Part shown: positions 2,480 to 18,781 of the stretch, in pieces | Position numbering within the stretch: the stretch's first letter is position 1 | Layout of the letters: the number at the start of each line of letters is the position of its first letter | DNA from: Candidatus Pacearchaeota archaeon | Lineage (GTDB): Archaea > Nanobdellota > Nanobdellia > Pacearchaeales > GW2011-AR1 | Assembly (NCBI GenBank): GCA_016188825.1 | Contig: JACPHA010000017.1 | Location: 271 to 64,270 of the forward strand | Direction: 5' to 3' | Length of the DNA stretch: 64,000 nucleotides | Translations under genes and position numbers: made by a program | The notes under the pieces: model-generated | What the model saw: only the letters and a program-made list of their open reading frames with translations | Told to the model about the DNA's origin: nothing | The model's database searches: none

Positions 2480-3478
2480 ATGACGTCGTTTGAAGCAACT
2501 TCTGCAACAAAAGTATCTCTCCAAGAAGTTAAAAAAGTCACAGAAGTAATTGACGCAATAAAACATGAAGTAAGAAAAGTTTTTTTTGGCCACGAAGCCG
2601 TTGTAGAATCATTAATCAGAGCAGTATTATGCGATGGGCACATCTTGCTTGAAGGTATTCCAGGAATTGCCAAAACACTTGTAATAAAAGCAATTGCTGC
2701 TGCAAGCGGTTGCACATCAAATAGAATCCAGTTTACAGTTGATTTATTGCCTACTGATATTACTGGCCTGACTACCTACGATCCCAATCGTGGCTTTGAA
2801 GTCGTAAAGGGCCCAATATTTGCAAACTTTATCGTCGCGGACGAAATAAACAGAAGCCCCCCTAAAACGCAGTCAGCTTTGATTGAAGCAATGCAGGAAA
2901 AACAAGTCACAATAGGAAAGACAACTTTCAAATTGTCCTTGCCATTTTTTGTCATGGCAAATGAAAACCCCTTAGAAACAGAAGGAGTTTATACTCTGCC
3001 AGAAGCACAAGTTGATAGATTTTTATTCAAAGTTGTTTTTGACTACCCAGAGCCAGACGACGAAAAAAAAGTCATGGAAGAAAATGTCACATTCAAAAAA
3101 TTCGAGGACGTTGATATCAGAGCAGTTGTTTCGCCCAAGAAAATAATTGACATGCAGCAATTAACTCATAAAATCTACTTAGACGAAAAAATAAAACAAT
3201 ATATCATTGATATTGTGACAAAAACCAGAAAAAAAGATTTCAAATATGGAGAATTTATCGAACTTGGCGGCTCACCAAGAGCAAGTATAGCATTGTACAT
3301 CGCGTCAAAATCAGAAGCTTTGTTGCGTGGCAGAAATTATGTAATTCCGAAAGATGTTGATAAAGTTATATACGATATTTTAAGGCACAGAATAATTTTA
3401 TCTTATCGTGCGCAGGCAGAGGGAGTTGACAGCGCCAAGATTATTAATGAAATCTTGAAGAGCGTTAAGGCGCCATGA
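2480..3478 (+). CDS. MoxR-family AAA+ ATPase
   Basis: Walker A LLEGIPGIAKT. Walker B/MoxR signature ADEINRSPPKTQSALIEAMQEKQVT. SD gaggt lies 8 nt upstream of the ATG. Confidence 0.9.
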   Translation: MTSFEATSATKVSLQEVKKVTEVIDAIKHEVRKVFFGHEAVVESLIRAVLCDGHILLEGIPGIAKTLVIKAIAAASGCTSNRIQFTVDLLPTDITGLTTYDPNRGFEVVKGPIFANFIVADEINRSPPKTQSALIEAMQEKQVTIGKTTFKLSLPFFVMANENPLETEGVYTLPEAQVDRFLFKVVFDYPEPDDEKKVMEENVTFKKFEDVDIRAVVSPKKIIDMQQLTHKIYLDEKIKQYIIDIVTKTRKKDFKYGEFIELGGSPRASIALYIASKSEALLRGRNYVIPKDVDKVIYDILRHRIILSYRAQAEGVDSAKIINEILKSVKAP

Positions 3479-4179
3479 AAAAAATGCTAAAAATAAAATT
3501 ATTATATATGTTAATTTGTATAGTAATTTTGCTTACTGGAGTTTCTTTTGTTATGGGGCAAGAAATTGTTCCAGATAATTTTCCAAAAAAGACAACAGAG
3601 TCAGAATCCTCTGTAGCCAAATTGATATTTTTTATGTCTGTCTTAATTTTAGCAATAATAGTTATTTTCTTTTTTTTATTAAGAAATAAAGGTAATTCTA
3701 TTTGGAAGGGAGCGTTTATTGGGGGGTTATACGTGTTGATTCCTTCTTTACTATCCATCCATACTTTATTTACTCGTGGCGGGTTAGGGGACCCGGGACC
3801 ATTTTGGCCTTTTATGCTTCTTCCTTTCTTGCCATTAGGAATAACTCTGATTGTTTCTGGTATGATCTCCTGGTTAATATCTCAGTTATCTTCTAATTAT
3901 TACATATCAAATGTGTCAATGATTATTGTAAATTTTATTCTATGGATCTTAATAGGCACCCTTATTGGATGGTTGATTAAGAAAAATAGAGAAAAAAAGG
4001 AATATGTAATAATCTGGATTTGTAGTATCTTAGGGCTACTCTTTGGAGGAGGCACGGGTTACTTATATTTTTCTTCTAGTTCCATATTCGGTCTTGTATT
4101 TTCTATACTGCTTGGTACATTAATCGGTACAATTATTGGATTTATAATTAAAAAATTAGGTAGAAGAAATGAAAAATAA
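3475..4179 (+). CDS. multi-pass membrane protein, MoxR-locus associated
   Basis: ATGA overlap with the moxR stop. Multiple TM helices. C-terminal TM plus IKKLGRRNEK tail is shared with the next ORF. Confidence 0.6.
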   Translation: MKKMLKIKLLYMLICIVILLTGVSFVMGQEIVPDNFPKKTTESESSVAKLIFFMSVLILAIIVIFFFLLRNKGNSIWKGAFIGGLYVLIPSLLSIHTLFTRGGLGDPGPFWPFMLLPFLPLGITLIVSGMISWLISQLSSNYYISNVSMIIVNFILWILIGTLIGWLIKKNREKKEYVIIWICSILGLLFGGGTGYLYFSSSSIFGLVFSILLGTLIGTIIGFIIKKLGRRNEK

Positions 4180-4609
4180 AGCGGTTTGGACCGGTGGGAT
4201 TGTTGGAGCTATTTTAGCTATTCCTTTTTTATTTGGATTATTTTTCTTAGAAGAAGGAATCTATACAAACAACGATGGTATTTGCCCCTATCATAAAGTT
4301 GAAAGTCAAATGTCGCTCCCTCCTACACCTGGGGATGAAGATAGAGAAGCAAAAACCATATGTGAAAACAGAATAAAACGCGGTATTCCTGAAGGAGAGA
4401 TTCGTGGGGGAGGGTTTACTTGTATTGATGGAATTTATTATCAAACTAATTATCATTGTATAACTAAAACCATTGGGTTTATTGAATCTGAGGCGGGCGG
4501 CATAATTATTGTATGGATATTTTTGGCAGAATTTTATGGGATTATATTTGGAGGATTAATAGGGAGTTTGATAGGATTTACAATTAAAAAATTTGGCAGA
4601 AAGAAATGA
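4169..4609 (+). CDS. membrane protein with Cys-containing extracytoplasmic loop; C-terminal paralogue of the preceding ORF
   Basis: 11-nt overlap with the upstream ORF. The C-terminus LIGSLIGFTIKKFGRKK parallels LIGTIIGFIIKKLGRRNEK of 3475..4179. Confidence 0.6.
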   Translation: MKNKAVWTGGIVGAILAIPFLFGLFFLEEGIYTNNDGICPYHKVESQMSLPPTPGDEDREAKTICENRIKRGIPEGEIRGGGFTCIDGIYYQTNYHCITKTIGFIESEAGGIIIVWIFLAEFYGIIFGGLIGSLIGFTIKKFGRKK

Positions 4610-17891: not shown

Positions 17892-17929
17892 AATTAGAAA
17901 GCTTTTTAATACTCATTAAAAAAAGATAT

Positions 17930-18781
17930 ATGATGAGAAAAATTATATTGTTGTTACTTCTACTTTCAACAGTATCTGCGCAAGAATTTGATTATTATAA
18001 TTTGGAAATCTCATTAACATCCTCTGGTTTGGCTCACCAAAAAATAGAAAATATATTTATTCTTGATAAAGAAACAAATGACATATTGTTCTCAATAAAC
18101 CAAGACATAGAAAATATAAAAGTTCCGCAAAACGAATTTACATTTACAGAGCAAGGAATCTTAATTCATAAAAATATAAAACCAGATGAGAAAAATTTAG
18201 TAGAGATAGAATTTGACACAAAAGATTTAGTTAAGCAATCAGGAAGCAACTTTATATTTTCCATGGATTTTTCTCTTCCATTCGTCTCTAAAAATACACA
18301 AATTAAATTAAACCTGCCCGAAGGTTTTATCTTGTCTGATATAGATCCACCCGCCTCTCCTAAACCAACAGTAATAGAAACAGACGGCAAAATTATTTCT
18401 TTAATATGGAAAAATCCGGAGGAAGAATCATTCATAGTCGTATATAAAAGAGGTTTTACCGATAAATCAGAATCTGCAATGCCAACCTATCTCGTTTTTA
18501 TTGCATTATTAATTATAATTTTTACAGCGATTTTGTTTATGCTCACACAAAAAAGAAAAACAAGAGAATTTATATCAAGCACACTAAGCGAAAATGAAAA
18601 TATCATATTAAATATAATAAGAAAAGAAAAAAACATTACTCAAAAAAAGATTGGTCAAATTACAGGATTTTCTAAGTCAAAACTATCAAAAATTATTAAG
18701 AGGCTAGAAGAAAAAAATATTTTAAAAAGAAAACCCTTCTTTAAAACAAATAAATTTGAATTATCAAAAAAGATGAAATAA
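17930..18781 (+). CDS. single-pass membrane protein with extracytoplasmic domain and cytoplasmic winged-helix (MarR/TrmB-like) DNA-binding domain
   Basis: Signal peptide (..LSTVSAQE). Central TM YLVFIALLIIIFTAILFML. C-terminal wHTH-like ENIILNIIRKEKNITQKKIGQITGFSKSKLSKIIKRLEEKNILKRK. Confidence 0.65.
   Translation: MMRKIILLLLLLSTVSAQEFDYYNLEISLTSSGLAHQKIENIFILDKETNDILFSINQDIENIKVPQNEFTFTEQGILIHKNIKPDEKNLVEIEFDTKDLVKQSGSNFIFSMDFSLPFVSKNTQIKLNLPEGFILSDIDPPASPKPTVIETDGKIISLIWKNPEEESFIVVYKRGFTDKSESAMPTYLVFIALLIIIFTAILFMLTQKRKTREFISSTLSENENIILNIIRKEKNITQKKIGQITGFSKSKLSKIIKRLEEKNILKRKPFFKTNKFELSKKMK

Follow-up and report, generated by a model that had tools for sequence, protein, structure and literature searches.

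The gene cluster of HYV50

We analysed a stretch of 64,000 nucleotides (nt), referred to as the window, from a 66-kb contig of a metagenome-assembled genome (MAG) of a groundwater Candidatus Pacearchaeota, which belongs to the DPANN archaea. The assembly is incomplete and is called HYV50 here; the region carries the locus tags HYV50_04880 to HYV50_04935. The gene cluster under study spans positions 2480 to 18781 (HYV50_04885 to HYV50_04930) and encodes an AAA+ ATPase of the MoxR family, a DUF58 protein and a BatA-type membrane protein with a von Willebrand factor A (vWA) domain. These three genes, the triad, are contiguous in related archaea, whereas in HYV50 they are pulled apart by genes for exported and membrane proteins. 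As the initial annotation had pointed out, these are three proteins with several transmembrane segments (TM), a very large secreted protein (the giant) and a protein with a LamG domain. The multi-TM proteins have 7, 2 and 4 segments and are named 7TM, 2TM and 4TM accordingly. A secreted protein with immunoglobulin-like (Ig) repeats, Ig480, and a winged helix-turn-helix (wHTH) regulator follow the vWA gene.

Domains were called with Pfam, including a lenient re-scan at E ≤ 5, and with NCBIfam and PADLOC. The Pfam profile searches upheld the earlier assignments of the MoxR, DUF58, vWA, propeller, LamG, Ig and wHTH products together with their coordinates (Table 1).

Table 1. Features of the HYV50 cluster, segments of the giant protein and genes at the 3' side. 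Positions are those of the window; aa, amino acid residues; PLC, phospholipase C; AF2, AlphaFold2.
Feature	Position	Strand	Residues of the giant	Basis or role
MoxR-family AAA+ ATPase (MRP type), 332 aa, 0 TM	2480-3478	+		Pfam, motifs
7TM, 7-TM protein HYV50_04890	3475-4179	+		TM prediction
2TM, 2-TM protein HYV50_04895, Cys-rich loop	4169-4609	+		TM prediction
DUF58 protein, 302 aa, vWA-fold adaptor, 0 TM	4674-5582	+		Pfam
Unannotated PLC-domain pseudogene fragment, 225 nt	5622-5846	+		blastx
4TM, 4-TM protein HYV50_04905	5949-6440	+		TM prediction
Giant, 2217-aa secreted mosaic protein	6430-13083	+		Pfam, homolog coverage, AF2
Giant: signal peptide, then predicted Zn-PLC-like domain	~6517-7404		30-325	
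Giant: PQQ/FG-GAP beta-propeller	~7417-8709		~330-760	
Giant: Ig-like module			~800-900	
Giant: Gly-rich region	~9577-10479		~1050-1350	
Giant: Cys-containing modules				
Giant: C-terminal domain, common to homolog P0004			~2100-2216	
LamG protein, 794 aa, exported	13083-15467	+		Pfam Laminin_G_3 2.9e-12
BatA-type vWA membrane protein, 306 aa	15470-16390	+		Pfam, topology
Ig480, secreted 480-aa Ig protein	16449-17891	+		Pfam Big_7 3.9e-5 (borderline)
Membrane-anchored wHTH one-component regulator, 283 aa	17930-18781	+		Pfam HTH_24 1.2e-8, topology
c315	18800-19747	-		synteny anchor, ancestral 3' boundary of triad
DUF192	19795-20133	+		synteny anchor, ancestral 3' boundary of triad
Kae1/TsaD	20651-21706	+		synteny anchor, ancestral 3' boundary of triad

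The overlaps and gaps noted in the initial annotation were verified at all five junctions. MoxR and 7TM share 4 nt (ATGA, 3475/3478), 7TM and 2TM share 11 nt (4169/4179), 4TM and the giant share 11 nt (6430/6440) and the giant and LamG genes share 1 nt (13083), whereas the LamG and vWA genes are separated by 2 nt (15467/15470). The start of the vWA gene is coupled to LamG by this short gap and has a GGAGG upstream. The GenBank starts differ from the longest open reading frames (ORFs) for 4TM (108 versus 163 aa), the Ig protein (477 versus 480) and the wHTH protein (282 versus 283). The 4TM/giant overlap is independent of the choice of start because it involves the stop codon of 4TM. Gaps of 5 nt or less between neighbours on the same strand were found at 5 of 9 positions in the cluster and at 16 of 35 outside, and 93% of the window is coding. 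Tight packing is therefore the norm of this genome and does not by itself imply co-translation, as had been concluded from it earlier. The only large gap in the cluster, 366 nt between DUF58 and 4TM (5583-5948), contains the pseudogene fragment. A simple scan for TATA and Shine-Dalgarno motifs, which is suggestive only, showed TATA-like motifs 5' of DUF58, 4TM and Ig480. Scans of positions 1500 to 20500 for sigma-70 promoters (88 versus 77.9 +/- 10.5 in shuffled sequence) and for intrinsic terminators (11 versus 11.5 +/- 4.0) use bacterial models and were set aside as uninformative for an archaeon.

The triad is contiguous in related archaea

The cluster was compared with 35 related triad loci (L010-L044) from MAGs of Pacearchaeota, Woesearchaeota and Nanoarchaeota. 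Thirty-one were anchored on DUF58 in species-representative genomes and four were reached from the side of a surface-protein family, U1300, described below. The vWA gene directly follows DUF58 in all 34 loci that have both, with a gap of -1 to 458 nt compared to 9,914 nt in HYV50. Between MoxR and DUF58 the gap is 5-655 nt in 24 of 25 relatives, compared to 1,198 nt in HYV50. The earlier statement that MoxR, DUF58 and vWA are normally neighbours was thus borne out. In the closest relatives, DUF58 is 58-67%, MoxR 70-73% and Kae1 75-77% identical to the HYV50 proteins.

The genes that follow the wHTH gene in HYV50, namely c315 on the opposite strand, DUF192 and Kae1, stand directly after vWA in L010, L012, L013 and L014. 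In about 12 relatives c315 is found directly 3' of vWA in convergent orientation. The c315 protein has an N-terminal TM segment and two DUF494/RecX-like helical repeats; it may be part of the conserved neighbourhood or may reflect mere synteny.

Since the triad is contiguous in 34 of 34 relatives, the insertions in HYV50 are derived. There are three, and they occupy all three junctions of the triad: 7TM with 2TM; 4TM with the giant and LamG; and Ig480 with the wHTH gene. Apart from a generic LamG domain, no homolog of any of the seven inserted genes is present at the 35 loci compared. The inserted genes all encode exported or membrane proteins and are oriented like the triad. The GC content at third codon positions and the codon-usage distance of the inserted genes lie within the range of the housekeeping genes of the window, which ruled out a foreign origin. 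The GC content is slightly raised in the middle of the giant, where it coincides with the Gly-rich region. We conclude that the specific gene composition of the HYV50 cluster is not a conserved system.

The proteins of the triad

MoxR matched the whole Pfam model AAA_3 (1-131 of 131, 1.1e-54, 184 bits) and AAA_lid_2 (4.3e-18). Its Walker A (GIPGIAKT) and Walker B (FIVADE) motifs are conserved when compared with 22 orthologs, and it is 51-73% identical to the MoxR proteins of the related loci. With the AAA_3 domain, both Walker motifs and the C-terminal lid present, the protein belongs to the AAA_3/MRP family. It also matched the Pfam model bpMoxR, at 8.4e-12 and 45 bits. The DUF58 protein covers positions 2-213 of the 216 in its profile (PF01882, 4.8e-44) and matched VWA_2 at 2.8e-10; its metal-ion-dependent adhesion site (MIDAS) is degenerate (DMSEN). 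Both MoxR and DUF58 are predicted to be cytoplasmic because they have no TM segments.

The vWA protein matched VWA_2 (1.4e-19) and the BatA N-terminal domain (2.7e-6; 28.2 bits with a cut-off of 25.9). It begins with TM1 and TM2, which are joined by a KRKR-rich loop, and continues with the vWA domain and TM3; its MIDAS is complete and conserved (DNSKS...GGT...SDG). The Leptospira BatA model was matched over positions 1-286 of 315 with 1.6e-28, below the strict cut-off of that model. An extracellular position of the vWA domain is predicted from this topology and by analogy to the BatA homolog BB0173 of Borrelia, whose vWA domain was mapped experimentally to the outside of the cytoplasmic membrane (PMC5700661). 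The triad proteins are 40-73% identical to their orthologs, and the catalytic and MIDAS motifs are kept. Weak NCBIfam matches were to BchD, RavA and GvpN.

Two observations on the triad of the relatives stand on their own. The MoxR genes at L023 (4910-7633) and L024 (3-2213) are split by an intein of about 555 aa after the Walker B region, at the site ...DEINRSPPK|C...HN|TQSAL..., and Hint/intein Pfam domains also occur in some U1300 homologs (P0072, P0074). In a more distant archaeal group (L031, L033 and L035) a DUF58-vWA pair was found with no MoxR within 10 kb, so that the pair can exist without the ATPase.

Surface proteins beside the triad in relatives

In the relatives, membrane-anchored proteins rich in glycosylation sequons are encoded directly 5' of MoxR. 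We labelled these families U1300, U600, U250 and U390 by their approximate length in aa. U1300 proteins have about 1250-1430 aa, Big_9/He_PIG/PKD Ig-like repeats, an N-terminal signal and a C-terminal helix with a TM anchor. They are accompanied by proteins of about 530-820 aa and of about 250 or about 58 aa, and a subset of the relatives adds a pair of about 390 and 150 aa. The order of the genes is the ~390-aa, the ~150-aa, the ~600-800-aa Ig, the ~58- or ~250-aa and the ~1300-aa Ig-repeat protein, followed by MoxR, DUF58 and the BatA-type vWA protein. Examples are L010 (2133-8621), L041 (2382-12819) and L042 (4585-13293).

U1300 was present within 3 kb of the triad in all 21 loci with enough coverage, with a downstream position in L036. 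The DUF58 identities of these 21 loci range between 67% and 33%. At least 142 proteins belong to the family, and every one of them is labelled 'hypothetical'. When the search was reversed, MoxR-DUF58-vWA was found directly after each of four sampled U1300 members that are 32-44% identical to the query. Large LamG proteins flank the canonical cluster at its 3' end in L022 and L036 and at its 5' end in L041 and L044. In a tblastn search over 478 kb the LamG domains of the related loci were detected only at L022, L036 and L044, and that of L041 was detected with Pfam; every LamG-domain gene that was detected among the 35 loci is thus contiguous with the cluster. A BatD-like nature of the U1300 C-terminus was considered and dropped for want of Pfam support. 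No description of the DPANN U1300/MoxR cluster was found in the searchable literature.

In the 64-kb window of HYV50, tblastn at 1e-3/1e-4 detected no homolog of U1300, U600, U250 or U390, and no U1300 with an HYV50 tag was among the named database matches. We conclude that the HYV50 locus has the core of the triad without its canonical partners and is not a U1300 cluster.

The giant protein and its predicted phospholipase C-like domain

The propeller of the giant matched Pfam FG-GAP/PQQ models at residues ~530-750 and propellers of known structure in the Protein Data Bank (PDB). In residues 1-340, Pfam gave no match at E ≤ 5, including Zn_dep_PLPC, and NCBIfam gave none either; the middle and C-terminal segments likewise matched nothing in Pfam at this threshold. 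The AF2 model of residues 1-340 had a mean local confidence (pLDDT) of 70.8 and a predicted TM-score (pTM) of 0.79. When the model of the N-terminal domain was searched with Foldseek, the top 17 structures were all zinc-dependent PLCs, with a probability of 1.00 and E-values down to 4e-4. The TM-score was up to 0.68 when normalised to the target and 0.63 when normalised to PC-PLC. A profile of the N-domain family, searched against the whole PDB, matched only PLCs (Listeria PlcB at 2e-8, Bacillus cereus PC-PLC at about 1e-7). On the strength of the model and the profile, we regard the N-terminal domain (residues 30-325) as a divergent zinc-PLC-like domain with the all-alpha PLC/S1-P1 nuclease fold, in agreement with the 'PLC-like' remark in the initial annotation.

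The H, HFxxPD, HxxxDxxxxxH and E motifs of the domain align with PLC. H35, D84, H92, H147, D151, H157 and E176 are invariant in 14 members of the N-domain family and align to the PLC motifs. The zinc ligands of PC-PLC, which we take to be H14, D55, H69, H118, D122, H128, H142 and E146, include one, H142, whose column is not His in the N-domain family; an invariant H163 is close by. The domain may be catalytic. Compared to B. cereus PC-PLC, Clostridium perfringens alpha-toxin and Listeria PlcB, it shares the all-helical fold and the aligned motifs but has only about 15% identity and is fused to a beta-propeller and about 1900 further residues. Further members of the N-domain family, in which the domain is joined to S8 peptidases and other modules, come from DPANN archaea, Candidate Phyla Radiation and other bacteria (P0002-P0026).

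The closest homologs of the giant match only its first ~900 residues (31-41% coverage). In one of these loci, the woesearchaeotal L001 (1830-15787, compared with 6430-21706 of the window), the giant homolog and its cassette array are likewise within a few kb of Kae1/TsaD, although the triad is absent. Surface-protein arrays of this kind may recur in the neighbourhood of Kae1.

A pseudogene fragment and small-TM/PLC-like cassettes

The fragment at 5622-5846 is a copy of residues 174-249 of the giant and has no start codon. It was matched to the giant by blastx with 67% identity over 78 aa (E = 2e-30), and its 150-nt core (5696-5845) is 90% identical to positions 7026-7175. It is unannotated, as there is no locus tag between HYV50_04900 and HYV50_04905. 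Three independent Logan assemblies of this organism (L005-L007) break within the repeat at about residue 239 of the giant because the repeat is shared with the fragment. Going by these sequence relations, we take the fragment in the DUF58/4TM gap to be a recombination scar and the layout to be a product of recombination.

In L001 and L002, partial or stand-alone PLC-like copies are found 5' of the full-length giant homologs (L001 6100-10004; L002 9019-9977), and a small protein with 2-4 TM segments is encoded 5' of every PLC-like gene or fragment. These tandem units of a small TM protein and a PLC-like protein resemble arrays of silent cassettes or of the toxin/immunity type. When a profile was built from the small TM proteins of L001 and L002, it matched 7TM (E = 2.8e-4) and 2TM (E = 6.7e-4) as the top two of the six-frame ORFs, and none of 600 shuffled controls scored. 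With phmmer, 7TM and 2TM matched each other at E = 1e-5, 2TM being paralogous to the C-terminal part of 7TM. The profile found no similarity of 4TM to the small-TM family, so that 4TM is alike in position only. No Pfam family was matched by 7TM, 2TM or 4TM at E ≤ 5, and a TgpA_N match on 7TM (E = 1.4) was dismissed as noise. Because the profile picks out 7TM and 2TM, the inserts at the MoxR/DUF58 and DUF58/vWA junctions probably derive from one recombinogenic family of small-TM/PLC-like cassettes.

LamG, Ig480, the wHTH protein and the flanking genes

The LamG protein has an N-terminal hydrophobic anchor or signal, and its N-terminal 545 aa matched nothing in Pfam at E ≤ 5. Among 5.8 billion clusters it has a single homolog, HYV50_03260 (P0038), on another contig of HYV50; as the locus-tag prefix is the same, this is a paralog. 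A metagenome scan with the LamG/P0038 alignment gave no match. Ig480 consists of a signal peptide, two Ig-like repeats and a helical, Lys-rich repeat region. The wHTH protein has a signal peptide, an external domain of about 165 aa, a TM segment and a cytoplasmic MarR/HTH_24-like wHTH domain, and its full-length family has 314 representatives at E ≤ 1e-10. At the 35 loci compared, the triad has neither a wHTH gene of this kind nor Ig480 in its vicinity.

The cluster is flanked by core genes of the archaeal chromosome, namely MgtE, Kae1, L7Ae, S28e, RNA polymerase and gyrase. Further downstream, Rfam detected a 130-nt tRNA (48 bits) at 39358-39487 on the forward strand that was missed by ARAGORN; it is probably an intron-containing archaeal tRNA.

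Comparison with known MoxR and vWA systems

The Bat operons, such as BB0170-BB0176 of Borrelia and batABD of Leptospira, also have MoxR, DUF58 and a 3-TM BatA-type vWA protein with intact MIDAS together. However, the HYV50 cluster has no BatB-E, and TPR, SH3 and BatD domains were detected neither in it, with the lenient Pfam scan, nor in the partners of the relatives. The organism is an archaeon, and the partners are the PLC-like giant and LamG in HYV50 and the Ig-repeat protein U1300 in the relatives. The HYV50 core is of the MoxR/DUF58/BatA 'Bat-like' kind and not a full Bat operon. For the Bat proteins themselves, a role in the tolerance of oxygen or oxidative stress is disputed in spirochaetes (PMC3557215).

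In the PFNA clusters of bifidobacteria a secreted protein with FN3/Ig repeats is encoded together with MoxR and DUF58/vWA (PMC8430577). In the Esr clusters of the Actinomycetales, the secreted protein EsrA combines 14 Ig-like repeats with a terminal beta-propeller. It is encoded with MoxR/vWA and is required for the sensing of an epibiont in Schaalia odontolytica (bioRxiv 10.64898/2026.09.08.750141). The most similar known layout to that of the DPANN relatives is found here, as their U1300/U600 Ig proteins are likewise encoded 5' of MoxR-DUF58; in HYV50, the giant with its propeller and Ig-like module and Ig480 are inside or beside the triad. In contrast to PFNA and Esr, no transglutaminase, Ser/Thr kinase, phosphatase or FHA domain is encoded in 2480-18781, and a membrane-bound BatA-type vWA protein is present in addition. 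The nearest kinase gene (26336-28105) lies on the opposite strand, 7.5 kb from the cluster, among housekeeping genes. Also, the HYV50 propeller protein is not conserved with the triad, and the organism is archaeal.

The ternary conflict systems with bpMoxR (PF20030; Kaur, Burroughs, Iyer, Aravind 2020) combine MoxR-vWA with a third component, which varies and in some cases is a beta-propeller protein. They differ in the P-loop, which is GXXXTAKS in their variant and GIPGIAKT in HYV50 (PMC7159879). Moreover, the HYV50 vWA protein is membrane-embedded, effector domains and effector-associated domains (EAD) are absent, and the propeller is on a secreted, non-conserved giant. A reading as a defence or conflict system was considered but found no support, as PADLOC gave no match to any core protein and the locus lacks the defining features of the ternary systems.

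MoxR and vWA proteins form the chaperone pairs RavA-ViaA, CbbQ-CbbO, NorQ-NorD and CoxD-CoxE, and the Mg-chelatase pair BchI/BchD is comparable. The HYV50 locus resembles them in having an AAA+ MoxR with vWA/MIDAS partners, and they provide the template of an ATP-driven remodelling of a MIDAS-held client. Whereas these pairs act on cytoplasmic or membrane enzymes, the MIDAS is predicted to be outside here, and the candidate clients are large exported proteins.

What the locus may be

We favour the reading that the locus holds a conserved MoxR-DUF58-BatA module for the handling of surface proteins whose clients were exchanged in HYV50, and we give this reading slightly less than an even chance. 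The HYV50 locus would be a rearranged version of a cluster that is conserved in DPANN archaea of the Pacearchaeota/Woesearchaeota type. On the inner side of the membrane, MoxR and DUF58 would do work that is driven by ATP, and the BatA-type protein would bind, hold or release large exported proteins with its external MIDAS. The set of clients would be exchangeable, the Ig-repeat family having been swapped in HYV50 for the PLC-propeller giant and LamG, which have no membrane anchors beyond their N-terminal signals. Such a membrane-spanning device is suggested by the analogy to RavA-ViaA, CbbQ-CbbO and Bat/BB0173 and by the conserved adjacency to large exported proteins. Also in favour of the reading are the contiguous triad of the relatives, the linkage of U1300 to the triad seen from both sides, the lack of the canonical partners in the window, the intact core proteins, the co-oriented inserts for exported or membrane proteins, the tight coupling of vWA to LamG, the LamG genes that adjoin the cluster in relatives, the PFNA and Esr precedents and the native codon usage of the inserts. 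The triad would then interact physically with its clients, would be co-transcribed with their genes and would act either in assembly and anchoring or in signalling; it may mature the giant and LamG or form a host-contact apparatus. A stronger version, that this is an undescribed, widely conserved DPANN module which deploys or reads out exchangeable giants and was re-tooled in HYV50, with the PLC-propeller giant, LamG and the transmembrane wHTH regulator in place of the Ig-repeat clients, as a host-contact apparatus for attacking, harvesting or sensing host membranes, we consider unlikely.

The earlier idea that the triad serves large surface proteins is partly supported. It gains support from the relatives, where U1300 accompanies the triad in 21 of 21 loci, and it fails for the specific composition of the HYV50 cluster with its giant and LamG. 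Several observations weigh against the favoured reading. The split layout is unique to the HYV50 genome; other contigs with the same arrangement are from the same strain (identical contigs came from the runs SRR12113384-SRR12113433), and the layout is known from one organism. The survey of gene neighbourhoods, which had been named beforehand as the observation that could speak against the proposal, did so: in the 10 kb around the closest giant homologs (L001-L004) there is neither MoxR nor DUF58 nor vWA, and LamG has no ortholog, its sole homolog being the paralog HYV50_03260 that is not linked to the triad. The close packing of the genes is no more than chance for this genome. The 90% identity of the scar suggests a fairly recent rearrangement that is perhaps not yet tested by selection. 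By sequence similarity, 7TM and 2TM look like members of the PLC-cassette family and not like parts of a MoxR system. The absence of the canonical partners holds for only 64 kb of an incomplete MAG. Finally, the AF2 model of LamG, made from a two-sequence alignment, had a pLDDT of 31.9 and was unusable.

The main rival is that a recombinogenic array of surface-protein or small-TM/PLC-like genes landed in the triad junctions near Kae1 as a passenger with no functional link, its co-orientation merely allowing the split operon to stay expressed. We regard this as possible but doubtful. It agrees with the finding that in 0 of 34 relatives there is anything between DUF58 and vWA, with the giant homologs and the only LamG paralog being unlinked to the triad, and with the giant array of L001 that lies a few kb from Kae1 where the triad is absent. 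The scar and the PLC pieces and paralogs of L001 and L002 show that the cassettes recombine readily, the packing is the genome norm and the wHTH protein is from a common family. However, under the passenger explanation each of the three junctions of a 3-kb operon must have received an insertion with no damage to the operon. It also leaves unexplained why this locus simultaneously lacks the canonical partners, why all replacements are exported and why LamG giants stand at the cluster edges in four other lineages.

A related possibility, which overlaps with the other explanations so that our confidences in the four do not sum to one, is a toxin/immunity-like array. The giant would be a contact-dependent or secreted phospholipase that attacks or harvests the lipids of host membranes, 7TM, 2TM and 4TM would have a protective or handling function, the fragment would be an orphan cassette and the triad would be incidental. 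The PLC-like fold with its aligned zinc-ligand motifs, the small TM protein that stands ahead of each PLC-like gene or fragment at L001 and L002, the match of the small-TM profile to 7TM and 2TM, and the fragmentary or paralogous PLC copies beside full-length genes in three genomes are all consistent with it. We still think it somewhat unlikely. The small-TM similarity is weak (E about 1e-4) and was not detected for 4TM; in contrast to classical polymorphic toxins, the small genes stand ahead of the enzyme gene and it is the N-terminal pieces that vary. The enzymatic role is putative, and the residue at PLC H142 is not His. Also, such an array would account for the giant, whereas the conserved link between the triad and surface proteins is left unexplained.

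An Esr-like sensing system, with the giant, LamG and Ig proteins as extracellular sensors, for example of the host surface, the triad as a thresholding transducer and the wHTH protein as the output, seems unlikely to us. There is the precedent of EsrA with MoxR/vWA in Schaalia odontolytica (bioRxiv 10.64898/2026.09.08.750141), and in the ternary systems variable sensors are combined with a MoxR-vWA switch (PMC7159879). MoxR matched bpMoxR at 8.4e-12, a transmembrane wHTH protein is encoded at the 3' end of the cluster, and the partners vary across lineages while the core is conserved. On the other hand, the lenient Pfam scan (E ≤ 5) showed the cluster to be devoid of kinase, phosphatase, FHA and transglutaminase genes, and the wHTH gene, whose family is a common one, is missing from the triad locus of every relative. 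MoxR is far better described by AAA_3/MRP than by bpMoxR (184 versus 45 bits) and has a canonical P-loop, and PADLOC matched none of the core proteins. The apparently catalytic PLC-like domain would also suggest an effector rather than a sensor.

Meaning for DPANN surface biology

DPANN archaea are thought to be attached to hosts, and the molecules at the interface are largely unknown. It is also generally reported that they cannot synthesise lipids themselves. The PLC-like domain on a secreted giant, accompanied by small membrane proteins and gene fragments, is of importance as well. If the HYV50 cluster is a re-tooled host-contact apparatus, it would be the symbiont-side mirror of the actinobacterial Esr system, which senses epibionts.

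Among the genes that neighbour those for large surface proteins in these DPANN lineages, the triad is one of the most stably linked. It adjoins every U1300 member examined and is a candidate route for their assembly, anchoring or read-out in minimal genomes. HYV50 is a natural experiment in which the usual partners were swapped for other exported proteins. If the module is client-exchangeable, it would be an archaeal counterpart that links the bacterial Bat, PFNA and Esr clusters; if the inserted genes are passengers, the locus would show how recombination drives the turnover of surface-protein genes. The chief value of the locus is that it points to a conserved, unnamed DPANN cluster of surface proteins with MoxR and to a family of PLC-like giant cassettes.

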